A DNA stretch of 52,973 nucleotides from Candidatus Dormiibacterota bacterium (GTDB lineage Bacteria; Chloroflexota; Dormibacteria; Aeolococcales; Aeolococcaceae). Positions within the stretch are counted from its first letter, which is position 1. Each line of letters begins with the position of its first letter. Below the pieces are notes generated by a model that was given only the letters and a program-made list of their open reading frames with translations, searched no databases and was not told where the DNA came from. Position numbers and translations under genes: made by a program. Location of the stretch: the NCBI GenBank assembly GCA_003136295.1, contig PLDZ01000232.1:1-52973 (forward strand). Reading direction: 5' to 3'. Positions 2,461-45,683 of this stretch are shown piece after piece.

Positions 2461-3426
2461 GTGACCGACTCAAACCCGTTCGGCGAACTCCTATTACTCT
2501 CGGGGAGCGGCAACCCCGAGCTCTCTGAGCGGATTGCCCGCGAGATCGGCATGCCGCTTGCCGACGTCGAAATCACCCGCTTTGCCGATGGCGAGTTCGA
2601 CGTCAAGATTGCTGAGTCAGTACGAGGTCACGACGTCTTCCTCATACAGCCGACCTGTCACCCGGTGAGTGACAATCTCATCGAACTCTTCATCGTGCTT
2701 GACGCTTTGCGCCGGGCTTCTGCATCGCGCATCACCGCGGTCATCCCGTACTACGGTTACCAGCGGAAGGAAAAGAAAACCCAACCTCGCGATCCGATCA
2801 GCGCGAAGTTGATGGCGAACATCATCGAGCTCGCAGGCGCCAACCGAGTGATCTGCGTCGATCTCCACGCCGAAGCAATCCAGGGCTTCTTCGATATCCC
2901 GGTTGATGCACTTATTGCGACCAAGATCCTCGCCCGACGGGTCCGCGAACGCCACGGGCATGACGTCGTGATTGTTTCCCCTGACAGCGGCGGGGTTGAC
3001 CGGGCGCGGAAACTCGCGCGAATCCTGGACGCGCCTATCGCGGTTATCGATAAGAGGCGCCCCCGCGACGACACGGTCGAGATCGTGAATGTCATCGGCG
3101 ATGTTGCGGGCGCGAAGTGCGTGATTATCGACGACCTCATCTCGACCGGTGGGACCCTTGCCAGCGCCGCGGTTGCACTGCGTTCCAGTGGAGCAATCAC
3201 GGTGGATATCGTCGCAACCCACGGCGTTCTGAGCAATGGAGCGCTCGCTCGATTGCACGCCGCGCCGATCGACGAGATCTGCATCACCGACACGATCCCC
3301 CAGCACAATGGCACTCGCAGCTTTGATGACGCACCGAAGCTACGCATCCTGTCCGTAGCACCGCTCATCGCCGAAGCGATCGTCCGTGTTCACGAGGGAC
3401 GGAGTGTGAGCGAGTTGTTTCGGTGA
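2461..3426 (+). CDS. prs: ribose-phosphate pyrophosphokinase
   Basis: Typical Prs N-terminus (LLLSGSGNPELSERIA..FADGE..V), the YYGYQRKEKK flexible loop and the PRPP-binding loop VIIDDLISTGGTL. GTG start. Confidence 0.93.
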   Translation: MTDSNPFGELLLLSGSGNPELSERIAREIGMPLADVEITRFADGEFDVKIAESVRGHDVFLIQPTCHPVSDNLIELFIVLDALRRASASRITAVIPYYGYQRKEKKTQPRDPISAKLMANIIELAGANRVICVDLHAEAIQGFFDIPVDALIATKILARRVRERHGHDVVIVSPDSGGVDRARKLARILDAPIAVIDKRRPRDDTVEIVNVIGDVAGAKCVIIDDLISTGGTLASAAVALRSSGAITVDIVATHGVLSNGALARLHAAPIDEICITDTIPQHNGTRSFDDAPKLRILSVAPLIAEAIVRVHEGRSVSELFR

Positions 3427-8566: not shown

Positions 8567-9610
8567 ATGCCTACCACCATCATTGAGGTGGCTCGGTATG
8601 CCAGAGTCGCACCTTCGATCGTCTCGCGCCTGCTCAACGCGGATCCGAAGTTGCACATCAGGCCGGAGACCGAGGCCAGAATCCGCACCGCCGTCGCCCT
8701 CCTCAAGTACCAGCCGAACAACGCTGGACGCGCACTCCGGAGTACCAAGGCCGCCGCCGTTGGCTTGATACTTCCCGACGTTACGAACCCTGTCTTTGCA
8801 GAGAGTGTTCGCGGCGCGGAGTCCGAGGCTGCGAACCTCGGCTACGTTCTCCTCCTCGGCAGAACAGACGACCTCGACACCCAGAGCAGCTCGTACCGAC
8901 GGCTCATCGGTGAACGACGCATCGACGGCGTGCTCGTTCAGGTCAGCAATGTTCTTGACAGCGCAACCATGTCGAAGGTCATCGATACTCGCGTACCAAC
9001 GGTTCTCATCAATTCGAGGCTCGAGGATATCCCAGGATCGGTTCGCATCAACGACGAATTCGCTGCCTACCTGGCGACTGCTCATCTCATCGACATTGGT
9101 CATCGCGACATCGGAATGCTGGCCGGGCCCCGCGGTCTTTACACGAGCGCGCAGCGTCAACACGGCTTTGAGAAGGCCATGAAAGAAGCTGGACTCCGGG
9201 TTCGACGCAACTGGATCGTCGACGGAAGCTACGACGTTGACACCGGTCAAGCCGCGATGAAGGCGATGCTTCGGTCACCGGGCCACCATCCCACTGCGGT
9301 CTTCGTCACGACACTGAGCGCTGCCGTGGGGGCGCTGGCCGTGGTGCACGAGGGCGGAATGAGCGTTCCTGGCGACATCTCCATCGTAGGTCTGCATGAC
9401 TTCTGGTTTGCCGAACACACCTCACCGCCGCTGACGACCGTGCGCACGCCGCAATTCGCGTTGGGAGTTGCCGCGATGCGCGTACTGGCTGGCCGGATCA
9501 ACGGCGCTGAACCGGTTGATCTCGTAGTCGACGAGCCACCTCCGGAGTTGGTGATCCGTGGCTCGACGGCACCGCTTCACGCCGCGGGCGGCAGTCAGGG
9601 CCTCGCATGA
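8567..9610 (+). CDS. LacI-family transcriptional regulator
   Basis: N-terminal HTH (TIIEVARYARVAPSIVSRLLN) followed by a periplasmic-binding-protein-like sugar-binding fold (GLILPDVTNPVFAE..). Confidence 0.9.
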   Translation: MPTTIIEVARYARVAPSIVSRLLNADPKLHIRPETEARIRTAVALLKYQPNNAGRALRSTKAAAVGLILPDVTNPVFAESVRGAESEAANLGYVLLLGRTDDLDTQSSSYRRLIGERRIDGVLVQVSNVLDSATMSKVIDTRVPTVLINSRLEDIPGSVRINDEFAAYLATAHLIDIGHRDIGMLAGPRGLYTSAQRQHGFEKAMKEAGLRVRRNWIVDGSYDVDTGQAAMKAMLRSPGHHPTAVFVTTLSAAVGALAVVHEGGMSVPGDISIVGLHDFWFAEHTSPPLTTVRTPQFALGVAAMRVLAGRINGAEPVDLVVDEPPPELVIRGSTAPLHAAGGSQGLA

Positions 9611-30552: not shown

Positions 30553-30998
30553 GTTGTCTGTCCACCTGGAAGCCCACCGGCACATCGATGCGGTGGCCCC
30601 CCGTTACCGGACGTTCGCGCTCATCGCCCATCTGCGCGAAGCCCATGGCATGGCCGACGTTGCAGCGGAGCGGGCCGTTATCGCCCACTCCCTGCTCACA
30701 CAACACGACATCGCGCTGGCGTTCCCCGTGGCCGAAGATCGGGAGGCGCCCTGACATCCGTTCGTAGCGGAGGGGATCGGGCATGATGTGTCGTGCGACA
30801 TGCTGGGCTTAGATCTCACCCCTCCCGCGGGACGGCTCAGAACCTTCACTTGGCTCATCGAGGATTGAGTAATGCCAATTAGCCGTACCTCCCGTCGTGT
30901 ACCGGAATGAACTCGACGAAAGCAGCTGAGTCCACGTCCTGGCTTCCTACTATCTTCGTAAGATATGCAAGAGGCTCCAGTCGTCGCGAGGATAAGGA

Positions 30999-32207
30999 AT
31001 GGTAATTGAGAGCGGCTTCGAAGACTATATCCCGACCCCCAGCCATCTGCATTGGACCGCATCAGCGTCTGCTTTGGGCGACCTTTGCAAGGAGTTGACC
31101 GAGGTTACGAAGGCCGGTGCAGACGATAGCATCGTTCTCCGCATACGCCTGTGCCACTTCAAACAGAACCACTGGCTTACACCACGCCTCTTCTGCTTCA
31201 ACCTCGCGAAGCTCGGAGGGGACGGCGTCTCGCTCGAAGACGCGATCTCCGGCGACGAGATCACCTTTGCGATTGTGTTGAATCACTCCGTTGAAGCCCA
31301 GATCCGCTCGGCGATCTCCACGATAGCGTCGCTTATCATGCGTCAGGAGCATATTGCGAAGATCCGCGTAGGACTGTCCTCGATCGACACGATTGATAGT
31401 GACGTGAAGTCGCTCGATGGACAGGCAAATGAAGAGATCGCCGACCGTCTGCGATTTGGTTATCGCTCCGCCACCTCTGTCCTGGCTCGAAGCGCCTCCG
31501 AACGTGGCTTCCGACTGGAATGCCGGTATGCGCCTGATCTCCTCCCGACCGAAGAGCTCGTCGACTCGCGAATTCCGACGTTGAGGGCTCTGTACAACGA
31601 ACGCGAAGACGTACGTGCTGCTGTGGACGGGACGGTGGCCATGATCGGCACGGGGCGTGTGGCGAGCGTCGGAGGATCGGAGAGTATGCGCGATCTTGTC
31701 CAGAGGTCAATGACGCTCTGGAATTTCGCAAAGCACATCAGTCACACGTTCCGGGACGCGCTCGTGTGTGGCAATGGATTCATGGTCGTAAACGCCGCGG
31801 CTTCATCACCGCTAAGCAATCTAGATCCGCTCACGACCACGGTCCTAGCAGAGGGTGTGGTCGAAGTCGGCGAGGGAAACACTGCTAAACGACGCATCGA
31901 CACTGGTGTTGTCCATTTACGCGGAATAGAACAAATCGACTGCCTGTATGGCGTGTCGCCACTTGAGGTACTTCTTCCCCACGTTCAAACCCTGCGCGTC
32001 ATCGACGAGACCGTGTCAGAGCTGGAGAAGTTCGACACTGGCAACCTTTCGGAGGCGAACCGCGCCGTGCTGGCTTCGCGAAAGGAGATGCGCGGCAGGG
32101 CGGTGCTTGCAACCACGGAAGCAATACGCGAGTTGTTCGCCGACTTCGTTCCGACGCACGGACCAGCGTTAGCGGATCTCTACTTCCAAGGCTACGAGTT
32201 GATGTGA
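30999..32207 (+). CDS. hypothetical protein with a phage-portal-like core segment (aa ~251-345)
   Basis: Clean 402-aa ORF with protein-like composition. The segment FRDALVCGNGFMVVN..LSNLDPLTTTV..VVHLRGIEQ..LYGVSPLEVLL follows the motif order of HK97/SPP1-type portal proteins. The stop overlaps the next gene's GTG start (GTGA). Confidence 0.6.
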   Translation: MVIESGFEDYIPTPSHLHWTASASALGDLCKELTEVTKAGADDSIVLRIRLCHFKQNHWLTPRLFCFNLAKLGGDGVSLEDAISGDEITFAIVLNHSVEAQIRSAISTIASLIMRQEHIAKIRVGLSSIDTIDSDVKSLDGQANEEIADRLRFGYRSATSVLARSASERGFRLECRYAPDLLPTEELVDSRIPTLRALYNEREDVRAAVDGTVAMIGTGRVASVGGSESMRDLVQRSMTLWNFAKHISHTFRDALVCGNGFMVVNAAASSPLSNLDPLTTTVLAEGVVEVGEGNTAKRRIDTGVVHLRGIEQIDCLYGVSPLEVLLPHVQTLRVIDETVSELEKFDTGNLSEANRAVLASRKEMRGRAVLATTEAIRELFADFVPTHGPALADLYFQGYELM

Positions 32208-34681
32208 CCCGATGGCGCAATCCGATACCGGCTACGTCATTCGCGCGAGCCGTATCGTGGCTACTATGCAATGGGGTGGCTCTGCTACCTCCCGCAAGAA
32301 CGTGGGCGCTCGGCCGAGCCGTGCAGATGCGCTGGCGACCGGACGGCATCGACTTCGAGCGCCCACAGGTCGATGATCGCCGCCTTCGAGCGTTGATTGA
32401 CCAGGGCGGACCCGTCGGCAAAGTCCTGCTACGTGAGTCGGCATCTCATTTTTCAATACCGGAGCTGGCCCAGGCCCTAGTTGATCCCGTCATGGAGCGC
32501 CCACTCATCGCCACCATCGCCGGAGTCGCTGATGGTGAGGGTCGCAGCCACTGGTGCCGGCAAACCATTCAAGCGGCGGGGACTATCGATCCCAGTCACG
32601 TGAGAGTGGCGCTTGGCGTCGCATCCAAGGTCGCTGATGCTATTGCCACCGATGATGCGCGAGCCATTCTCGACTACTGTTTCGAGGTCGTTGCCCAGCC
32701 CATAGGGCCATATGGCGGGTCAGTTCTGGCTGCGTCCGCGGCTGAGGCGGCCGAGGCTCTTCTCACGACGCATCGGGAACTCGAAGTGACATTGGTCGAT
32801 CGATGCAACGGTGCGCCGAGTGATGGCATCCGCGCCGTTGCTGCTGCCGTCGTACAGGCCCGGGACGACGGGACCGGCGTTCTCTTCCTAGAAATCCTCA
32901 AAGCATGGAGACCGCCTTCTGGCCGCGTGGCGCAGTTTGCGGTCGAGTGCGACAACCGGCGGTCACTCGGCGATGCCGCCCGAGCGGCACAACCGCTTGA
33001 TTTCATATGGCGCCAACGGCTGTCTCGCTACGCCGCGTGGGGGTGGTATGTTGCGCTACTACTCATCCCCGCTAGCGTGGTCTTCGTCGGCGTCTTCCAT
33101 GGACTGGCCGTAGTCCGACGGTCCAGCTACGTCGAAGCGATCGCGATTGTAGCCCTCCTGCTCGCGGTGCACGTAGTCGCGGCGCAGCTCGCGGCGACAA
33201 GACTGCCGAGTCCTCTGGCGTCTGGAGCGTTGCAGTCTCCTGCCATCACAGTCGGCTATGTTTGCGCGCTCACCGTCGTGCTGCTCACTGCCATGGTGCC
33301 GGTCAGTGGCAACGCCAACCTACAGGTAAGTGCGGCCTTGACGTTCACTGGCGGCCTGTTTTTCTTATCTGTTGTCGCCTCGGCACATGCACTGGTGCGA
33401 GCAACCGACTCGGTCGTTGCGGCCAGCGCGTTTGCAAGGGCTCGCCGCTGGCGATACCGCCGCGCAGGCCGGCGCCTAGGGGAGCTCCAGCAACACGGGA
33501 TAGAGTGCAAGGCGGCAGCAGAAGGCCTGTCATACGTCCGGCTCGAGCCCTTACCGTCCTTCACAGAACGACGTACGGACATACGTACCCAAGGTTTTGG
33601 CTACGTTGATGCCCAGGCGAAACGATTGCGAGGTTTAGGTACGAGACATTCATGGAGTGACGGCCATCTAACGCTTCGCGTGACCAGCGTCCTGGCCACG
33701 CGCATAGAACGAGGTGCAGTGGTGGCTTCAATAGTCCCGGACGCAGATACGATCGTCAGTCACGGCGACGCCAAACGGATTCAACGAGTCTTTCCTGTTC
33801 GGCGATCACCGCGAATCGACGAGGTCAGCGAGGCCGTCGCCGGGCTCTTTGCCCTGATAGTCCAGGAAGCAACCGGTGGTGACAGCTCCGGGGCAAGCCG
33901 TGTGGCTGAGATCTTGTGCGACATGCTGCTCAACCACCTGGACGGCGCGCTTTCTCGACGAGAGCGGACGGCACAACCTCAAGCGGATGCACAGCCAATT
34001 GCTCCTTCCGTGCTCGCGCTCGTCACACTCCTAATGAGCATGAAGAAGGCAGGACCGGAGGTTCTGCCGCTACAAGCGCTCGTACGGCGTCTGCTTTTCG
34101 AAGCCGACCCGAGCGAGAGAGTCGCGTTGGCGGTCGCAGGACGTGCCTCGCGAGCGGGGCCGGAGTTGTCGCTCCAAATGCCGCTACTGCTCGACTGCGC
34201 CCGCCGGTGTCTCGAGTTGCAGGATGGGCAGGGGGAAGCGCTCATTCGTCGGGTGATACAGGATGCGGTGGTTTCCGGCACGCCCCTAACCCAGATTGCG
34301 CTCAAGACTTCGTGCGAATTGGCATGCCTCGCGCCATGGCTTAGCTATGCTCGCGCTCCACACATCTGGAGGTGGTATTGGGAAATGCTTCCAGACAGAG
34401 CCGATGAAGAGCGACTTGTAGGTGCTTTCTCAGTCGGCGCGTCCGCACTTCGAGCAGGGCATCTATCGCTTGCGACGGCAGTGGCGCATGACGCGAACCA
34501 GCATGGGCTGACTCTCGATACTGCACCCGAGTCGGTAATTCGACAGGCCGAGCTCAGATCACTTGTGGAGGGACGCTATCTCGGCGACGATGTGCACGGG
34601 GCGCTCACGAGATATGCAAGCTTTGCACGCCGCTACGTCGAACTGATCAGCGCGCCGGCAGACGAAGCTCCTGGAGACTAA
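32204..34681 (+). CDS. large membrane protein: 4 central TM helices followed by a DUF2254-like soluble domain
   Basis: Hydrophobic helices lie at aa ~277-304, 310-331, 347-366 and 375-397. They are followed by QGFGYVDAQAKRL..HLTLRVTSVLATRIERGAVVASIVPDAD..RIDEVSEAVAGLFALIVQEA, the layout I associate with DUF2254. The GTG start is coupled to the upstream gene. Confidence 0.6.
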   Translation: MTRWRNPIPATSFARAVSWLLCNGVALLPPARTWALGRAVQMRWRPDGIDFERPQVDDRRLRALIDQGGPVGKVLLRESASHFSIPELAQALVDPVMERPLIATIAGVADGEGRSHWCRQTIQAAGTIDPSHVRVALGVASKVADAIATDDARAILDYCFEVVAQPIGPYGGSVLAASAAEAAEALLTTHRELEVTLVDRCNGAPSDGIRAVAAAVVQARDDGTGVLFLEILKAWRPPSGRVAQFAVECDNRRSLGDAARAAQPLDFIWRQRLSRYAAWGWYVALLLIPASVVFVGVFHGLAVVRRSSYVEAIAIVALLLAVHVVAAQLAATRLPSPLASGALQSPAITVGYVCALTVVLLTAMVPVSGNANLQVSAALTFTGGLFFLSVVASAHALVRATDSVVAASAFARARRWRYRRAGRRLGELQQHGIECKAAAEGLSYVRLEPLPSFTERRTDIRTQGFGYVDAQAKRLRGLGTRHSWSDGHLTLRVTSVLATRIERGAVVASIVPDADTIVSHGDAKRIQRVFPVRRSPRIDEVSEAVAGLFALIVQEATGGDSSGASRVAEILCDMLLNHLDGALSRRERTAQPQADAQPIAPSVLALVTLLMSMKKAGPEVLPLQALVRRLLFEADPSERVALAVAGRASRAGPELSLQMPLLLDCARRCLELQDGQGEALIRRVIQDAVVSGTPLTQIALKTSCELACLAPWLSYARAPHIWRWYWEMLPDRADEERLVGAFSVGASALRAGHLSLATAVAHDANQHGLTLDTAPESVIRQAELRSLVEGRYLGDDVHGALTRYASFARRYVELISAPADEAPGD

Positions 34682-35289: not shown

Positions 35290-35747
35290 GCAAGGCAAGT
35301 GTTTTGGCCGTGTCGGCACAATGTTCACTGACGATTCCGTGTCGCGTTTCCGTTTCCGCTGGTACTGCACTAGCCAGCCTCGGCTTGCAGAGTGTGTCCC
35401 GCTGAGCTGCGCAGGTGAACGCTACGGGCGGAACAAGCCGAATCCGTTTGCGGCGGGTGCTGGTTAGACGTCGACCTCAATCCATACGCGGCCGTGTCGC
35501 TAGATCCCCAGGAGGTTGGCTCCTTCAGCGCTGTCGAGGTTGGCGATCTCTCTCCTGGACTCCTGCGACAGGCTGTTGTCGCGGTTGCCGGTATGCTTGC
35601 ATCAGGGTCAAGAGAAACGGCACAAGCCTCCCGGCAGCCGTCTCAGCAACCGCGCATCCCGCGCACGGTGCTCCCGGGAGAAGACCTGACCGCAACCAAG
35701 GTGGCGGTAAGGGCGGGGCCGCTGAGGCCTCAGGACTGGAGGTAGGC

Positions 35748-36344
35748 ATGGACAACCGGCCTTTCTGGCAGCCGCGGCGGCGTTCGGATGGATCTACTCA
35801 GCGGATCGACCAGATGACCGCTGCTCTCTTGTGGCTTCGGCGTTCGGAGAACAGTTTCGTCGTCTTCGGCGATGCTGATCGCGCTGACCGCTATGCTCAA
35901 TTCGCGATTGACATGGGTGCCTTGGAGGAGGAAGCTTCGCCGGCGGCCGTCTCTGTCCCGGTTCCTGTACTCGTGGCCGCAGCGCTCGGCGGTCCCGCTG
36001 ACAACGTGGGCTTCGCGGTTTCCGTCGTGGACGGCCCGCCACATTGGGCCGCCGGCGGTGGCTACTTCGGTGAACCGGATCACGAGCCGTTGGTAATGGA
36101 GGTCGGTTCCGGCCTGTGGCCTCGGAGCAATCCTCGCGGTCTGGCCGACGACGAGACGGTCGTCGCGAACCTCGCGGCGCTCGGGCTCCGACTGGGCGGC
36201 GGCAGGCACACTTGCCTGAACTTCTGTCGTGACGGCGTGACCGAGCCGAGCGACATTCTTGCTGCCCTTTGCGAAGAAATTATGGTCGAGGTGGTCCATG
36301 CGCGGCCAACCTATCCGCTCATCGTTAAGCGCGGGCACTTCTGA
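35748..36344 (+). CDS. hypothetical protein, possibly YbjN/TY-Chap-like fold
   Basis: The ATG at 35748 is preceded by GGAGG. The segment RYAQFAID..LVMEVGSGLW..ETVVANLAALGL..LNFCRDGV..DILAALCEEIMVEVVHARPTYPL resembles actinobacterial TY-Chap-type proteins. The Arg-rich stretch upstream (35415-35747) looks non-coding. Confidence 0.55.
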   Translation: MDNRPFWQPRRRSDGSTQRIDQMTAALLWLRRSENSFVVFGDADRADRYAQFAIDMGALEEEASPAAVSVPVPVLVAAALGGPADNVGFAVSVVDGPPHWAAGGGYFGEPDHEPLVMEVGSGLWPRSNPRGLADDETVVANLAALGLRLGGGRHTCLNFCRDGVTEPSDILAALCEEIMVEVVHARPTYPLIVKRGHF

Positions 36345-36457
36345 TGAAGCGGCGAGCACGACACCATGAGCCGGCGGCCCAAGAGGATGCGGCAGCAGCT
36401 ATCCTGCTCGCACGAGAAGGTCTGCACACTGTCGCTATATAGACGGAGGTGAGCTAA

Positions 36458-36709
36458 GTGACACCGGACGAGGCCGTTCCAATCGCCAGAGTGCTGAAGT
36501 TTGTGGACCGCGGCGGTGATGTCATTCTCTATGAGGCCGGGGCGGCGGCTCAGGTCTTCGAAATAAACGAGGCTGCCGACGAGGCTGCCGACGATGGCGA
36601 GCAGACCTTGATCGACGCTTTCGACCCCGGGCCTCTTGGTGTTCCGCAAGAGCTACGCCGCTTCTACGTCATGCAGTACGGCATGATGTCAGCTGGTCTG
36701 CGCCAATGA
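36458..36709 (+). CDS. small acidic hypothetical protein (83 aa)
   Basis: GTG start with plausible composition, but no recognisable motif. Confidence 0.35.
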   Translation: MTPDEAVPIARVLKFVDRGGDVILYEAGAAAQVFEINEAADEAADDGEQTLIDAFDPGPLGVPQELRRFYVMQYGMMSAGLRQ

Positions 36710-36804
36710 GCGCCGACCTACCTGAGATTCGGCGTGTGGCAGAAGGAATTGGATGGCGTTTGGAAGAAGGCGACATAGAGGACCTACCGCAGCGTTGGGG
36801 TGAT
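36706..36804 (+). CDS. possible 32-aa micro-ORF coupled to the preceding gene
   Basis: The ATG overlaps the upstream TGA (ATGA at 36706-36709). It translates to MSADLPEIRRVAEGIGWRLEEGDIEDLPQRWGDS. It is below the ORF-track length cutoff and has no other support. Confidence 0.2.
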
Positions 36805-37130
36805 AGCTGAGTTCACGACTCGTGCGACGCAGGCAGCGTGTTCCCCACTAGAGCGCCGCGGCAGAGACGGCGCCGCCAGTGCTTGTGCCATCTCTCTTGA
36901 CCCTGGTGTAAGCATACCTGGCAACCGCGACAACAGCCTGTCGTGCGTCATGCGTGTGGCTACGAGCGTCTGCGACCTGCACCTAGCCGGCGAGACATCC
37001 CTGTTTCGATAGCATCCGGGATGCGTACGGCAATTGGGGCTCGGATTTGCGATGTCGAACTCGCCTGTTGGGGCCAGACCATAAACATCCAATCGTTGTC
37101 TGGTTCCAGACGTCGCTAGCAGTGGCTGTA

Positions 37131-39228: not shown

Positions 39229-42200
39229 TTACGGTGTCGCTAACTTCGGAGCTGCGGGTCTCTTACGCGTCGACGACGGACACGCTCGCCAGTAGGCGCA
39301 CCCCCAGCACGGCGGCTCGTTTGGCGCCAGTCGTACCCCTCTCACCAACGTCGTCATTAGCCTCTCGACACCCAGCCAGCCGTCATCCCCACCGCGATGT
39401 ACCAAGCCGGTCCGCATCTCCATCAGTAACGCCCGGGCGTCGAGACCCAAGGCCTCCTTGATCGCCCGCTGATAAATGGCCAGTTGTCGCCCGTACACGG
39501 TCAGCGCCTCGGCCCCCAGGGAGCGGTTGGTCTTGTAGTCGACCACCCAGGCTCGGCCATCGGCGTCCCTGCAGAGACGATCGATGAATCCGCGTACCAA
39601 TACGGGCCGGCCACCTACATCAACCGCGAGATTGACCTCTTGTTCCGTGGCGATCGTCGGCATCCGAGCGACCTCCGTCGTCAGGTAGCGCTCGAACATT
39701 CGCCCCGCGCTCGCAGCCCACGCGGCTGAGGCGCTCTCGGCGCCCAAAGCGACAGATCCAATCTCATCCCAAAGGGCGCGCAGACGCGGGATCCCGCCAG
39801 TACCGTCCTCCGGCCCGGGCTGATGAAACCGCTCCAGGACGGCGTGAACAAGCGACCCAAGATCCGCAGCACCAATCGAGCCGAGGTGGGCTGTCTCGCG
39901 CTTCGGGGATAAGTCGTCCGGCGGAGCCGGCAGCCGCCACTCAAACATGTATTGGTACCGCAGACCGCACTGGGCCAGGACTTCGAGTTGCGAAAAGGAC
40001 ACCACCAAGCGTTCGGCGGTTTCGGCACCCCGATCGCGGGCCAGCGCCCCGGCGCCGCTCGGAAGCGCTATGGCGGCCGGCTTTTGGGCGTCAGGTACAG
40101 ACGCCACGCTCGGTGGTCTCGCCGCATCGCCGGATTCCGTTTCTAGGAGAGTCCCGCAACCACCATCGCGAAGGAATAGCCCCATCGTTCGGAAGTGGTC
40201 GTCAGCGGGATCCCTCCGCGCCCGGCCGTTACCGTCAAGTACCGAGAACACCGAGTCCCAATCCGGCTCTTTCTTTCGCGTCGCCGAGACAAACAACTGC
40301 CGCTCCGCCCGGGTGATCGCGACATACACGAGCCGACGCGACTCGGCTCGATCCACATCCTTGGGGAGATCGCCCGCTCTCGCGGTGACGAAGTCGCCGT
40401 GCTTCCGTGTTGGGTTCTTCGTGTCACCGAGATCCTTGATGATCAGCCCCATTTCATCGTCGAAGAAGAGCCAGCCCCGGTGCTGGATGATCGGTGGCTT
40501 CACGTGCGCAAGGAAAGCGACGGGAAACTCCAGGCCCTTCGCCGCGTGGACGGTCATGAAACGTACGGCATCGGATCCCGACACATCCGCTTCGGGCACA
40601 TCGATCGCGTGTTCGTCGTGCAGGTTGACGTATCGGATGAACTCGTCGAGCCCGGTGAACGCCTGTGACGCCTCGAAGTCGCCGGCCATTCGATACAACT
40701 TGCGGAGGTTCCCGAGCCGCCGCGGAGCCTCCGACGCCTCGCTCCCCGCAAGTGCGGCATATCCAGTCTCATCGAGCACGGCCTGCACCAAGTCGCCGAC
40801 GGACATTCCAGCGCGCCGCGATGCCAACCCCCTCACCAAGTCCAGCGCAGTAGTCACGCGCTCGGCTGTGGCCGTGTCGCCCAGCTCGGTGAACCCCCCC
40901 TTCTCCGCCCGGATGACCCGATCCCACTTGTAGCGCAGCTCAAGTTCGTCACCCTCTGCACTTCGAAGAAGCCGGTGCAACTGCCCGTCGCTTACCCGGG
41001 CCAACGGCCCCTGAAGGACGCGAACCAGCGCCATGTCATTGAGCGGGTTGTCGACTACGGCCAGATAGGCCATCACGTCCTTGATCTCTTCGCGATCGAA
41101 GAAACCCTGGCCACCCGAGGTTACGTAGGGGATCCCGTGCTTGCGAAGCTCCTGCTCGAACGCGATGGGGGGTCGCGCCATGCGAGTGAGGAGTGCGATC
41201 TCATGCCAGTTGGTGCCGCCGCTGTGCACCCGCAGGATTTGCTGCGCCACAAAGCGCGCCTCGTCCTCGGGAGTGTCAGCCCGGTAGAGGGACACAGAGT
41301 GCACATCGCCGCCACCAGCATCGGCCACCAGGTCGGGCTCTTCCCCAAACTGCGCGTCCTTGCGGATGAGATGTGTCGCCAGATCGAGGATCGGTTGTAC
41401 GGATCGGTAGTTGGTCAGCAACAGTCGCTCATCGCCAGGAAAGTCGAGAAGGTTGCGGATCTGTGCGTCACGCCACCCGTAGATGCTCTGCTTGGGGTCT
41501 CCGACCACGGCGACATTCGCGAATCCGTCCTGCGCGAGCAGCTCCAGGACATCGCGCTGGATCCGGCTCGTGTCCTGGAACTCGTCCACGATGATGTACT
41601 GGAACCGCTCGCGAACACGCTGCCGCCAGGCAGCGTTGTCTCTCAGTGAATCGCGGAGACGCAACAGAATGCCGTCGAAGTCGAGCATCCTCCGCGCGGC
41701 AAGCCATCGCTCGTATTCGTGGTAGGTCGCGCAGATGAGGCGAGCTACCTCCTGCTCCGCGAGTTGCTCGTTCCCCTCATCCGGCACATCGACGCCTCCC
41801 TTGTCGTGCCAGTACACCTCAGCGCAGGTCGTGCACTGTGTGGCAAGGGTATCGGGTACGATCCCACGCCCTTTCATTCCCTGGATGAAGCCGAACGCCT
41901 CCGACGATACCTTCATGGCTACTTCGGTGCTGAGGACACGCAGGTCGAGGATCCCGGCCTCGGGAATCTCCCCGTTGCGCAGCGATGTGAGCACTTGGTC
42001 CACTAGGAGACGCTCTTCCAGCGGGTCGATGACCCTCGTATCCCGGTCGAAACCAATCTCGTAGCAGTCGTCGCGCAGCAGGCGCACGCAGAGTCCGTGA
42101 AAGGTACCAACCCAAGCTGCGTCCATCGACGCACGATCCGCAACGAGGCCACCCGCAACCAGCCGATCGGTCACTCGACCGCGCAGGTCCGCCGCCGCCC

Positions 42201-42378
42201 GGTTGGTGAAAGTCACAGCAACGATGCGGTTGGGATCGAGGCCCCTCTCCGAGACCAGATACGCGAATCGCTCCACCATCGTGAGCGTCTTGCCCGTGCC
42301 GGCTCCCGCGACGATCTTCTCCGCCTGAGTCGGGTCTGCTGTTGCCGCAGCCCGCTGCAGGTCGTTGATTTCGGTCAT
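39229..42378 (-). CDS. UvrD-like helicase / RecB-type nuclease fusion, AdnA/AdnB (AddA-like) subunit, downstream partner
   Basis: Walker A GAGTGKT, motif II IIVDEFQD and motif IV TNYRS are present. The C-terminal PD-(D/E)XK module reads GFIDRL..WVVDYKTNRS, QLAIYQ. The Cys set is LAQCG plus CWGCAYWRAC. The ATG forms an ATGA overlap with the upstream gene. Confidence 0.85.
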   Translation of the reverse strand: MTEINDLQRAAATADPTQAEKIVAGAGTGKTLTMVERFAYLVSERGLDPNRIVAVTFTNRAAADLRGRVTDRLVAGGLVADRASMDAAWVGTFHGLCVRLLRDDCYEIGFDRDTRVIDPLEERLLVDQVLTSLRNGEIPEAGILDLRVLSTEVAMKVSSEAFGFIQGMKGRGIVPDTLATQCTTCAEVYWHDKGGVDVPDEGNEQLAEQEVARLICATYHEYERWLAARRMLDFDGILLRLRDSLRDNAAWRQRVRERFQYIIVDEFQDTSRIQRDVLELLAQDGFANVAVVGDPKQSIYGWRDAQIRNLLDFPGDERLLLTNYRSVQPILDLATHLIRKDAQFGEEPDLVADAGGGDVHSVSLYRADTPEDEARFVAQQILRVHSGGTNWHEIALLTRMARPPIAFEQELRKHGIPYVTSGGQGFFDREEIKDVMAYLAVVDNPLNDMALVRVLQGPLARVSDGQLHRLLRSAEGDELELRYKWDRVIRAEKGGFTELGDTATAERVTTALDLVRGLASRRAGMSVGDLVQAVLDETGYAALAGSEASEAPRRLGNLRKLYRMAGDFEASQAFTGLDEFIRYVNLHDEHAIDVPEADVSGSDAVRFMTVHAAKGLEFPVAFLAHVKPPIIQHRGWLFFDDEMGLIIKDLGDTKNPTRKHGDFVTARAGDLPKDVDRAESRRLVYVAITRAERQLFVSATRKKEPDWDSVFSVLDGNGRARRDPADDHFRTMGLFLRDGGCGTLLETESGDAARPPSVASVPDAQKPAAIALPSGAGALARDRGAETAERLVVSFSQLEVLAQCGLRYQYMFEWRLPAPPDDLSPKRETAHLGSIGAADLGSLVHAVLERFHQPGPEDGTGGIPRLRALWDEIGSVALGAESASAAWAASAGRMFERYLTTEVARMPTIATEQEVNLAVDVGGRPVLVRGFIDRLCRDADGRAWVVDYKTNRSLGAEALTVYGRQLAIYQRAIKEALGLDARALLMEMRTGLVHRGGDDGWLGVERLMTTLVRGVRLAPNEPPCWGCAYWRACPSSTRKRPAAPKLATP

Positions 42379-45300
42379 TCGGCCTCGTACGCCTCAGGTT
42401 CCTCGATGCGTCCAGGACATACCCAGGCGTAGTCGCACCCCTTGCCCCAGGCTGCGAGGCAGGTATACCCGTCGTGGCGAGGGCGCGGCGCGAAATCGCC
42501 CGCGTGGAGCTCCTCCAGCGTCGTGAGGATCCTCCCGCGGGCTTCTTCAAGCTGATCGTCGTTCAGATGGAGCGGCCCATTCTTGGGCGTCTCACTGTCG
42601 TCGGCAATGATCCGCGTCTTGCGAATCTGATCCCCCTTCATCAGGTTGGACGGGTACCAGAGTCCAACGACATGGGGATCGACAGTGGGCACACCATCCA
42701 CTTCACCCTCGCGGGAGCCGAAGAAGTAGATGAGCAACTGAAAGTCGTGAGGGACGTCACTCGTGATGCCGAGGTCGTCGCTCAGCTCACCGGTGGTCTT
42801 GCCGCTCTTACCCGTCTTGTAGTCGACGATCTCGTGGCCACCATCGTCAACGACGATGATCCGGTCGATGTAGCCGCGGATCGTGACGTCGCGCACTGGA
42901 TGCCAGGTGAATCGTGCCTCGGTCGCCGCCGTGGCCGGCGACTCATGTCCCTCGATCTCTGACTTGTAGTAATTGGCGAAGAGGCGGCGGAGCGAGCTCC
43001 GTTCGACACGGCGATCAAGCTCTCCGTCGACGGTGCGGAGGTGTGCCTCGATTGCCGTGTCACAGCACTCGGCGTAGAACGTCTCGGCGAGCGCGGCGTC
43101 GTGGCGCCACCGCCGTTCGTTCTCGGGAGCGTGGAACCGCTGGAGCGCCGCGTGGAACGCGCTACCACGAGCCGCCGCGACGCCGGACTCCGTGCGCAGT
43201 CCGAGTGTCTTGCTGTAGTAGTACTGGCGAGGGCAGGCGAGGAACTTGCTGATGCTCGATGAGCTGTCGTACGACTCACTGGTAAGGACGACCGGCTCTG
43301 ACCAGGCTTCCCAGCCGGTGAACGAGGCCGCCTCACCGTCGTCCGGCGCGCCGAGGGCACTACCTAGTGCCGGGTCGCGGTGCAGCTCTGTGTACTCGCG
43401 AAGTGGAGCGTCGCCCGCGAGTGGCTCCAGGAATGCGCTGGGGGCTCCGACCTCTTCCTTCTCGTAGGTATCCGCCCACGACAGAAACAGCATGTCCTGC
43501 GCACGCGTGGCCGCAACGTATCCGAGGCGCGCCTCCTCACGGAGGAACTCCTCGTCGGTCGCGGGCCACGGGGGAGCGAAATCCACGAGCGTTTCCTCCA
43601 GCCACTGCTGCTCATGTTTCTCCAGCAGTGGGGTCCGTGCGCGAGCCACTACAGGAAAGTGCTGCGATGCCATCGCCGGCATGAACACCACCGGGAACTC
43701 CAGTCCCTTGCTGGCGTGCGCGGTGAGGATGCGAACGACACCCTGCTCAGGCTCGTCGGCAGCCGCAAGCTCGTCGATGTATTCGGGAAGGAGTTGCTCG
43801 AGGGCTGAAATGGTTTCGATGAGTGAGGGCGGCTGGTCGGAGAGAAGGGCCTGAAATTCGGCGTGGTCGGCCACCGCCCGAAGCAACATCCGCAGCGGTC
43901 CAAGGAGCTCATCCCGCCGGGCGTCGGACGTGGTCTGTGACATCAGTAGCCGCATCACGCCGAGTTCGTCGAAGACCCCGTGCAGCAGCACATCGATAGC
44001 GACCTGACTGGCACTCGACCGCAATCGCGCCCACCGCCAGGTAAACCCGTGGATGGCATCGCGTCCCTCGTCGCTGAGGAGATCGAAGAACCTTGCGGTT
44101 CTGCGGCTCGTCTCGGTGGGCTCACGGGAGCTCCGCTCGAGGGCGTCGGCCGCGGCTTGCTCTCGCTCGAGGTCAATGCGGCTCTCGGGAGTGGGTGACG
44201 GTTCCGTGTCGCTCCACGGGAGCGGCCAGCGACGGGGATCAGCCTCGTGGAGGAGGAAGCATGTGTGCTTCAACACGTTCAGGAGCGACGTGGTGCGCAG
44301 CGTCTCCGTCGCGGCCCGTTGACGGCGCTCCGCTTCCGCGAGCAGCCGGTGAGCGTCGGCCGCTGGAACACCCGCGAAAGGCGACTCCATCACGCGCATC
44401 AGGAAGGTGTCGTCATCGGGATGAGCCAGCGCGCTCAGGGCGTGCACCGCGAACCGGACGATGTCGGACGACGCAAAGTTGGGAGATGCGCCCGCCTCGT
44501 GCGGTATGCCTGCTGCTCGGAGCGCCTCCTCGAATTGGCGGCCATGGCGGCGAACGCTACGCAGCACGATGGCAATGTCAACGGGATGGTAGCGCGGCGC
44601 GCGAGAGCGGTCCGCGGACATGAGTTCCGCGATCTGCCGGACTACCCCCGTGGCCTCGTCGGTCGCATTCTGCTCGTGCTCGCGATGCAGCACCGGAACA
44701 TCGGCATTGCCGCGGTCTGGGACGAGCGCAGCAGCGTTGAGTCCGTACCGCTCGAGAAGGCGATCCGAGCCAGCCAGAATCGCACCGAACGAGCGGTAGT
44801 TATGCACAAGATCCACACGAGTGCCGCCGAACTGCCACTTCTCCTCGAGAAAGGCAGGAAGCGTCCCGCGGAACGAATAGACGGCCTGGTTCGGATCGCC
44901 CACCACCGCCAGTCTCGGGTGGGGTTGATGCTGCTCTACGAGTTGCGCGATGAGCTTGACCTGTGCGGCGTCAACGTCCTGATACTCGTCGACGATGATG
45001 TGCTGGAACTTCGTCGACAACTCCTCTCGCAGCGCGTCGTTCCGCTCCAGAAGGAGCTGGCACTGGGCGATAACATCGCGAAAGTCCCAGAGATGACGGC
45101 GGTCCTGTTCGGCCCAATACGCCGAATAGATCCCCGCCAGGTCGCGCATCTTCGCGTTGTCAGCGTCGCGTGCGTGAGCGGTGAAGTCGTCCGCCCGAAC
45201 GAGATTCTGCTTGAGTATCCCGATGAACCACAGCGCGTCCTGCACAAGCGCCTCGCTCGTCTGTAAGGGCGCGAGGATCTCGAGCGTGCTCAGCTGCGAG

Positions 45301-45683
45301 AGCACCCGTCGCATGAGCACCTTCTCCTCGAACCCGTTGATTAGGCGAAACGGGACGATCCCGTGGAGGTGGCCGTAGGTCGTCAGGACGCGGGCAGCGA
45401 AGGAGTGGAATGTGCTCACCCACGACTCGTCGTACGAGGTGTTGTGTAGGGCATCGATCCGGCGCTTCAGATCGCCGGCCGCGTTGTTGGCGAACGTCAG
45501 TAGCAGGACCTGGCTCGGGCGTAGCCCCCTCTCGTCGAGCAGTCGCAGGTACATGGCTACCACCGTGGTCGTCTTCCCAGTTCCCGGCCCGGCGACTATC
45601 CGAAGCGGCCCCTCGTCCATAAGGTTGAGGGCGGCGACCTGCTCCGCGTTGAGATGCAAGCGGCATGCCAGAGAAACCGTCAT
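42375..45683 (-). CDS. UvrD-like helicase / RecB-type nuclease fusion, AdnA/AdnB (AddA-like) subunit, upstream partner
   Basis: Walker A GPGTGKT, motif II IIVDEYQD and motif IV HNYRS are present. The C-terminal nuclease reads GYIDRI..EIVDYKTGKS, QLLIYFF. The Cys set is FLACPRQ plus CLAAWGKGCDYAWVC. Confidence 0.85.
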   Translation of the reverse strand: MTVSLACRLHLNAEQVAALNLMDEGPLRIVAGPGTGKTTTVVAMYLRLLDERGLRPSQVLLLTFANNAAGDLKRRIDALHNTSYDESWVSTFHSFAARVLTTYGHLHGIVPFRLINGFEEKVLMRRVLSQLSTLEILAPLQTSEALVQDALWFIGILKQNLVRADDFTAHARDADNAKMRDLAGIYSAYWAEQDRRHLWDFRDVIAQCQLLLERNDALREELSTKFQHIIVDEYQDVDAAQVKLIAQLVEQHQPHPRLAVVGDPNQAVYSFRGTLPAFLEEKWQFGGTRVDLVHNYRSFGAILAGSDRLLERYGLNAAALVPDRGNADVPVLHREHEQNATDEATGVVRQIAELMSADRSRAPRYHPVDIAIVLRSVRRHGRQFEEALRAAGIPHEAGASPNFASSDIVRFAVHALSALAHPDDDTFLMRVMESPFAGVPAADAHRLLAEAERRQRAATETLRTTSLLNVLKHTCFLLHEADPRRWPLPWSDTEPSPTPESRIDLEREQAAADALERSSREPTETSRRTARFFDLLSDEGRDAIHGFTWRWARLRSSASQVAIDVLLHGVFDELGVMRLLMSQTTSDARRDELLGPLRMLLRAVADHAEFQALLSDQPPSLIETISALEQLLPEYIDELAAADEPEQGVVRILTAHASKGLEFPVVFMPAMASQHFPVVARARTPLLEKHEQQWLEETLVDFAPPWPATDEEFLREEARLGYVAATRAQDMLFLSWADTYEKEEVGAPSAFLEPLAGDAPLREYTELHRDPALGSALGAPDDGEAASFTGWEAWSEPVVLTSESYDSSSSISKFLACPRQYYYSKTLGLRTESGVAAARGSAFHAALQRFHAPENERRWRHDAALAETFYAECCDTAIEAHLRTVDGELDRRVERSSLRRLFANYYKSEIEGHESPATAATEARFTWHPVRDVTIRGYIDRIIVVDDGGHEIVDYKTGKSGKTTGELSDDLGITSDVPHDFQLLIYFFGSREGEVDGVPTVDPHVVGLWYPSNLMKGDQIRKTRIIADDSETPKNGPLHLNDDQLEEARGRILTTLEELHAGDFAPRPRHDGYTCLAAWGKGCDYAWVCPGRIEEPEAYEAE

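Follow-up and report, generated by a model that had tools for sequence, protein, structure and literature searches.

We analyzed a coupled gene pair in contig PLDZ01000232.1 (assembly GCA_003136295.1) of a Candidatus Dormiibacterota bacterium; the window, as used here, is the whole stretch of 52,973 nucleotides (nt) that was analyzed. Gene 1 (30999..32207) starts with ATG and encodes a predicted cytoplasmic protein of 402 amino acids (aa), and gene 2 (32204..34681) starts with GTG and encodes a predicted inner-membrane protein of 825 aa. Both open reading frames (ORFs) were read from the sequence and, like all features of the pair given below, lie on the forward strand. The letters at the junction are TTG ATG TGA, and the GTG start at 32204 is embedded in the ATG-TGA end of gene 1, so that the GTGA stop/start overlap at 32204..32207 is real. 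The identical 4-nt overlap is found in 10 distinct loci of the pair and implies, at the level of sequence, that the two genes are translationally coupled. The public annotation of gene 2 (P0003) starts at M42 and gives a product of 784 aa, leaving out window positions 32204 to 32329. Residues 13 to 41 of the longer form are kept at the protein level in P0005, a 52%-identical homolog, and the 825-aa form is called in a Logan assembly. Because these residues are conserved and the overlap recurs, the long GTG start at 32204 is the more probable one, and we favor it over M42.

The initial annotation had described the motif order of a phage portal protein in gene 1, and all four motifs are there: FRDALVCGNGFMVVN (residues 251 to 265), LSNLDPLTTTV (272 to 282), VVHLRGIEQ (304 to 312), and LYGVSPLEVLL (316 to 326). 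The Pfam family Phage_portal (PF04860) matched residues 233 to 339 with profile positions 40 to 150 of 321 (E = 4.8e-4), at 19.9 bits, which is below the gathering score of 39.1 bits that defines Pfam membership. The same family was matched independently by 14 of the 71 sequences in our gene 1 family alignment (A3), with a best E value of 4.6e-6. An exhaustive hidden Markov model (HMM) search of 1.84 billion cluster representatives identified 143 gene 1 relatives, 68 of them at E ≤ 1e-30; most are 380 to 450 aa long and match end to end. With about 143 clusters among 1.84 billion, gene 1 and its relatives make up a very rare family. A word-indexed search returned two relatives only, and a search of a genome collection with alignment A5 returned one related locus only. 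The sequences come mostly from high-GC (guanine-plus-cytosine) soil metagenomes, with one Solirubrobacteraceae metagenome-assembled genome and at least one low-GC lineage among the remaining sources.

We compared the A3 alignment with a profile (A8) of 15 genuine HK97-type portals from phage genomes. Profile-profile alignment with hhalign gave a probability of 93.9% and an E value of 1.6e-7, placing gene 1 residues 242 to 329 on residues 112 to 204 of HK97 gp3 (portal columns 96 to 189). HMM searches between the gene 1 family and the portals, run in both directions, found the same register each time. This core (31722..31985), which carries the family pattern RDAxVCGNGY ... LxPxxV ... VxHLRG ... 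YGxSxLE, is homologous to the portal wing by hhalign, Pfam, and the reciprocal HMM searches. With relaxed hhalign settings, the colinear stretch grew to gene 1 residues ~155 to 390 against portal columns 28 to 232 of 408. The C-terminal half of the portal (stem, clip, tunnel loop, and crown; HK97 gp3 ~232 to 424) had no counterpart detectable by hhalign in gene 1, where only about 75 residues remain after the conserved wing core, so that gene 1 does not carry the complete colinear set of portal domains. Circular permutation, with the N terminus of gene 1 corresponding to the C-terminal half of the portal, was considered and rejected, as the best hhalign E value was an insignificant 0.3.

AlphaFold2 modeling of gene 1 with the 71-sequence alignment produced a predicted local distance difference test score (pLDDT) of 90.8 and a predicted template modeling score (pTM) of 0.89; with a shallow alignment of 3 sequences the pLDDT was only 38.7. 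When the confident model was searched against the Protein Data Bank (PDB) with Foldseek, about 35 of the first 41 matches were phage portals, at probabilities of up to 1.00 and a best E value of 7e-4, and these included T4 gp20, T7 gp8, the lambda, Kp7, Pam3, and Bxb1 portals, and the PhiV-1 portal in the Avs4 complex. The best matches in BFVD were portals as well, led by a 413-aa COG4695 portal (E = 9e-6). The predicted model thus places gene 1 in the portal protomer fold, as relatedness at the level of the fold and not as a full-length superposition. Searching PDB sequences with the gene 1 profiles gave chance or artifactual matches only (an M24 peptidase, BHRF1, and a tobacco etch virus [TEV]-site expression tag); the tag match, 8jzq_A, arises because the TEV site ENLYFQG resembles the C-terminal LYF(Q)G of the family, and we discarded it. 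Foldseek on the high-confidence model, hhalign, and the reciprocal HMM matches in one register bear out the earlier proposal that gene 1 is related to portals.

The initial annotation had also called the first 250 residues of gene 1 an N terminus unrelated to portals. This holds in part. Most relatives match end to end, so the 250 residues are conserved in a separate family of proteins of about 400 aa and are no unrelated appendage, and residues ~185 to 250 are colinear with portal N-terminal helices in the relaxed hhalign alignment. Residues 1 to 184 (30999..31550) form a family-specific region, conserved among the relatives and alpha/beta in the predicted model, that has no significant sequence counterpart in HK97-type portals by hhalign against portal profiles (E ≥ 0.13). 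At the other end of the protein, a conserved LYFxGxE motif occupies residues 394 to 400 (32178..32198); L394, Y395, and G398 are almost invariant in the 71-sequence alignment, and a strict regular expression found a motif of this type in 45 of 89 full-length representatives. We conclude that gene 1 descends from a phage portal protein whose N-terminal wing portion it keeps. Added to the wing are about 180 family-specific residues at the N terminus and the conserved LYFxGxE tail at the C terminus. The channel-lining parts of the portal (stem, clip, tunnel loop, and crown) have most probably been lost or altered past recognition, judging from the alignments.

Searches of Pfam, NCBIfam, PHROGs, and PADLOC with gene 2 gave no match, nor did a profile search of the PDB. 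A search with the gene 2 family profile by word index returned just the four relatives already known, and profile comparisons found no internal repeats and no relation to the portal or gene 1 profiles. Weak Pfam matches of its relatives (CyanoTRADDas_TM, E = 0.076; EAD2, E = 0.23; and Cox20 in one member) were judged to be noise. The proposal that gene 2 contains a DUF2254-like domain was not sustained: PF10011 matched none of the 10 gene 2 family members even at E ≤ 10, and the likeness is one of general layout, a cluster of about four transmembrane (TM) segments followed by a soluble domain, to a family that is itself uncharacterized. Hydropathy analysis did agree with the proposed four central TM helices and an N-terminal region of about 275 aa. 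The hydrophobic segments lie at about residues 286 to 304, 312 to 330, 347 to 365, and 375 to 398, and the cluster as a whole (residues 277 to 398; 33032..33397) reaches Kyte-Doolittle peaks of 1.6 to 2.5 in all family members. It is preceded by an Ala/Arg/Leu-rich soluble domain (residues 1 to 275; 32204..33028), delimited by hydropathy, composition, and the family alignment (A6), and followed by a large soluble region of about 425 aa (residues 403 to 825; 33410..34678). Nine K/R residues follow TM4, which suggests an N-in/C-in topology, with both soluble parts predicted to be cytoplasmic. The most conserved motif of the alignment, HVVAA(E/Q)LAAxRLP (residues 323 to 335; 33170..33208), sits at the predicted cytoplasmic end of TM2, and H323, V325, A326, L329, A330, A331, R333, L334, and P335 are invariant. 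An invariant pair, T401-D402 (33404..33409), stands right after TM4, and the C-terminal region has a conserved segment at ~460 to 520 followed by a long Ala/Leu-rich, helix-favoring stretch.

We used family HMMs over all fetched loci to determine how often the two genes occur together. A gene 2 homolog lies directly 3' of gene 1 in 18 distinct loci (window/L015, L001 to L006, L008 to L010, L012, L031, L032, L033/35, L034, L037, L038, and L039), and three further contigs with gene 1 homologs are too short to judge the partner. The unit is therefore kept in every informative locus but one (L014), in keeping with the co-occurrence that the initial annotation had asked to be checked. Across 14 loci whose identities reach down to about 20%, the pairwise identities of gene 1 and gene 2 correlated with r = 0.992 (Mantel p ≤ 2e-4), and dN/dS values of 0.13 to 0.30 show purifying selection on both genes. 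No third gene is conserved alongside the pair across loci. The ORFs are intact in 16 of the 18 paired loci, and gene 2 is frameshifted only in L034 and L039. At L034 11139-13555, L039 2871-5520, and L032 1424-4436, gene 2 is split over two frames or has a small overlapping ORF ahead of it, which could reflect pseudogenization or assembly error. The protein P0089 resembles a frameshift fusion of the gene 1 C terminus to the gene 2 N terminus. In the low-GC member (L040/41, from a 33%-GC organism), gene 1 has a 914-aa partner with the same order of soluble domain, TM cluster, and soluble domain, and homology of this partner to gene 2 is not detectable.

The pair moves as a unit. A blastn alignment of the window with L001 has 92% nucleotide identity and covers window positions 30961 to 34641 only; it opens 38 base pairs (bp) 5' of gene 1 and stops shortly before the 3' end of gene 2, and the flanks are unrelated. 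The pairs of L004 and L012 are about 95% identical and those of L006 and L008 about 97% identical, and their flanks mostly differ. tRNA genes abut the pair in L004 (tRNA-Pro), L006 (tRNA-Tyr and tRNA-Thr), L008 (tRNA-Thr), and L009 (tRNA-Ser), and tyrosine integrases, serine recombinases, and insertion sequence (IS) and transposase genes lie near several copies. The pair is thus a mobile cassette of two genes, complete in itself, that passes horizontally from one genomic island to another. Neither gene matched any of 72,556 plasmids by tblastn. In L004, two complete copies of tRNA-Pro(CGG) (2998-3073 and 9065-9140) flank an element of about 6 kilobases (kb) that carries a tyrosine integrase and a helix-turn-helix (HTH) regulator of the HTH-M78 type (IrrE/RmrA-like), and the pair sits just outside it; this layout suggests tandem island accretion at a tRNA hotspot.

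The portal homology of gene 1 and the integrases near several copies would fit a prophage or satellite remnant, in which gene 1 is a decaying portal gene of a degraded prophage and gene 2 an unrelated neighbor. The genomic record says otherwise. Neither gene had a tblastn match in 50,697 phage genomes, and three IMG/VR scans gave no match to the pair. A large terminase gene lies directly 5' of 11 of the 15 genuine portals, and a head protease gene adjoins 12 of them; in contrast, no capsid, terminase, protease, or tail families were seen in any pair locus among the top 25 families listed in the neighbor census described below, and in the family loci examined gene 1 lies in no head-morphogenesis module of terminase, portal, protease/scaffold, and capsid genes. 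The earlier observation that no capsid, terminase, tail, or integrase gene is near the pair was confirmed for the window ORFs scanned between 18063 and 52937. Instead of other phage genes and decay, the loci show no structural genes, purifying selection on both genes, intact ORFs in 16 of 18 cases, and a pair kept together down to about 20% identity. The pair is thus outside any prophage, as had been stated, and the reading as a remnant, to which we give only the faintest chance, is largely refuted.

We then surveyed the genes around the pair, both locus by locus and in a census of 103 ORFs, for which the Pfam, PHROG, and PADLOC results cover the top 25 families listed. In L033 to L035, a cluster of SNF2 helicase, DUF1156 methylase, and HEPN-DUF499 genes lies directly 5' of the pair. 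At L033 220-9813 the helicase is an SNF2/NOV_C protein of 1170 aa, the DUF1156 methylase has 933 aa, and the third protein, HEPN_Swt1-DUF499, has 1090 aa; in L034 other genes replace the first two, and because of this replacement, we regard the L033/L034 site, next to ftsZ/ftsA, as a variable defense hotspot. GmrSD and HEPN genes are near the pair in L038, a GmrSD fragment is present in L001, an Mrr-DEAD helicase gene adjoins the low-GC pair in L040, and the census holds methyltransferases, Vsr, and mad2/mad3. Strong PADLOC matches of neighbors to "RmrA" are HTH-M78 regulators or antitoxins and gave no evidence of a defense effector, and we set them aside. Qualitatively, several loci are defense or mobile islands, an outcome that agrees with the location suggested earlier. 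The HEPN gene reported beside the window pair was not recovered, with no HEPN matches in the window ORFs scanned; HEPN genes adjoin the pair elsewhere, in L033 to L035 and L038. The neighbors of the window copy are mostly metabolic or without known family.

Several features of the flanks of the pair stand apart from these comparisons. A short conserved leader (30961..30998) with an AGGA-type ribosome-binding sequence precedes gene 1, and the blastn homology to L001 starts there. The GC content over the pair is 0.59 to 0.60 against about 0.62 around it, a slight dip, and scans for sigma-70 promoters and terminators found sites no more common than in shuffled sequence. A conserved 79-bp palindrome, possibly a terminator or recombination site, lies 38 to 116 bp 3' of the gene 2 stop codon at L004 13571-13649 and also in L010 and L012. 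At window 35566-36943, terminal inverted repeats of about 62 nt enclose about 1.25 kb; they are imperfect, with 24 nt matching fully and 38 nt at 89%. This element begins about 0.9 kb 3' of gene 2, overlaps the ORF at 35415-36344, and looks like a miniature inverted-repeat transposable element or a small IS-like element, or else a very large hairpin. Farther along, on the reverse strand at 39229-45683, two tandem genes with a 4-nt overlap each encode a UvrD-helicase plus PD-(D/E)XK nuclease protein (1049 and 1102 aa), which is the AdnA/AdnB-type arrangement typical of Actinomycetota; they are probably housekeeping genes and not defense genes.

From the anatomy of the pair, the portal homology, the co-inheritance and mobility of the two genes, their absence from phages, and the island context, we tentatively propose, at somewhat short of an even chance, that the pair is a self-contained mobile cassette in which a portal-wing-derived protein and a four-TM protein act in antiphage defense or mobile-element conflict. 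A defense role is plausible from the genomic context. The conjectural steps of this proposal are complex formation, the trigger, and effector activity. The two proteins would be made in fixed proportion and form a membrane-associated complex. The wing is the part of the portal that contacts neighboring portal subunits, scaffold, and capsid, and we therefore infer that the portal-derived subunit might engage a head-assembly partner of the phage portal wing, whether portal subunits, scaffold, or major capsid protein. Gene 1 could then serve as a decoy or poison subunit that poisons procapsid initiation. It could alternatively signal to gene 2, whose TM domain would be the effector and would permeabilize the membrane in an abortive infection, or gene 2 could anchor the activity of gene 1 at the membrane. 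The suggestion of the initial annotation, a portal-like mimic or sensor wired to a membrane effector, is a reasonable hypothesis from context and architecture. The most specific version, a first defense system built around a domesticated portal, in which a membrane-tethered wing derivative co-assembles with or is bound by phage head proteins and then poisons procapsid initiation or opens a membrane effector to abort the infection, so that immunity would come from copying a conserved part of the virion, we consider rather unlikely as a whole.

A number of findings weigh against the proposal of a mobile conflict cassette. The sequence homology between gene 1 and portals spans only ~90 to 200 residues, which makes the extent of the likeness uncertain, and the Foldseek template modeling scores (TM-scores) against portals are only about 0.3 over 210 to 367 aligned columns. 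Gene 2 has no recognizable effector domain, and PADLOC-DB v2.0.0 contains no family that matches either protein at E ≤ 10. The proximity to defense genes is qualitative, and in L014 a gene 1 homolog occurs solo, without the partner.

Three other functions would also be compatible with a retained pair, and each has less support than a mobile conflict module. An island might use the portal-derived protein to interfere with or redirect helper-phage capsid assembly for its own transfer, as satellites do, with the membrane protein localizing or timing that activity. The cassette does sit on tRNA-associated islands with integrases or recombinases, and it is established from portal structures that the wing touches capsid and scaffold. 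However, the conserved unit is two genes only, with none of the other hallmarks of satellites (primase/replicase, packaging genes, small terminase, or capsid-size factors), the integrase element of L004, bounded by the tRNA-Pro duplication, leaves the pair outside, and the window copy has no integrase in the scanned range. We find such hijacking quite improbable. A translocation device is very improbable: portals are ring-shaped DNA channels, and the strict coupling of gene 1 to a polytopic membrane protein would suit a portal-like ring docked on that protein to form a passage through which DNA or macromolecules are taken up, exported, or excluded, but the channel-lining parts have no detectable counterpart in gene 1, with about 75 residues after the wing core, and the conserved surroundings include neither an ATPase nor any other transport component.

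It is also clearly unlikely that the pair stabilizes its island in the manner of an addiction or toxin-antitoxin module, or has another accessory membrane function unrelated to phage, so that the portal ancestry is historical only. The cassette has the expected two-gene, translationally coupled, mobile, and patchily distributed form, the membrane protein could be a toxin, and some islands hold RmrA-like HTH-M78 regulators and HTH genes. At 402 and 825 aa, however, the proteins are very large for a toxin-antitoxin pair, restriction-type genes recur as neighbors, and the retention of the wing motifs under purifying selection suggests that this surface still matters. We keep the mobile conflict cassette as the working interpretation of the pair.

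Portals are among the most conserved tailed-phage proteins, and bacterial immune sensors are already known to target them. A nonphage, cellular lineage derived from a portal, in an operon with a novel membrane protein, would represent a new recruitment of a viral structural protein. If the pair is a defense system, it would sense phage in a new way, by mimicking or acting as a decoy of the virion assembly hub instead of serving as its receptor, and would help in the study of phage head assembly in Actinomycetota of soil and their relatives, in which few defense systems have been tested. Should the pair have no defensive role, the analysis still defines two uncharacterized families, one of them, gene 1, with a confident predicted structure. 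Both proteins fall outside the curated families and the catalogued defense systems; in the searchable literature we found no described exapted portal and no nonviral portal-fold protein paired with a membrane protein.

The closest known relatives of gene 1 are the HK97-family portals (PF04860, COG4695; HK97 gp3), which are similar in length (402 aa for gene 1 against 424 aa) and share the motif order of the wing core, GNxY, LxPxxV, xHxxG, and GxSPx. Gene 1 differs from them in its subthreshold Pfam score, its extra N-terminal region of about 180 aa and its LYFxGxE tail, its absence from the phage genomes searched, and its membrane-protein partner (L014 excepted). In layout, the pair is like Kiwa (KwaA/KwaB), in which a polytopic membrane protein with about four TM segments and a soluble partner form a compact operon in defense islands. 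This is a likeness of possible working and not homology, as PADLOC, which includes Kiwa, gives no match; moreover, gene 2 is far larger than the Kiwa membrane protein, with cytoplasmic domains of about 275 and 425 aa, and the soluble partner is derived from a portal. Avs4 is a STAND NTPase that recognizes the phage portal, and its complex with the PhiV-1 portal (PDB 8dgf) supplies one of the structural matches of gene 1, so that a focus on the portal in immunity is common to both. Unlike in Avs4, the host-side protein gene 1 is itself derived from a portal, and the pair has no NTPase or nuclease domain. Phage structural folds have been exapted by cells in encapsulins (the HK97 capsid fold), tailocins, the type VI secretion system, and gene transfer agents. 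The module described here differs from these in having two genes only and no other structural components; for the portal, it would be the equivalent of encapsulins or tailocins.

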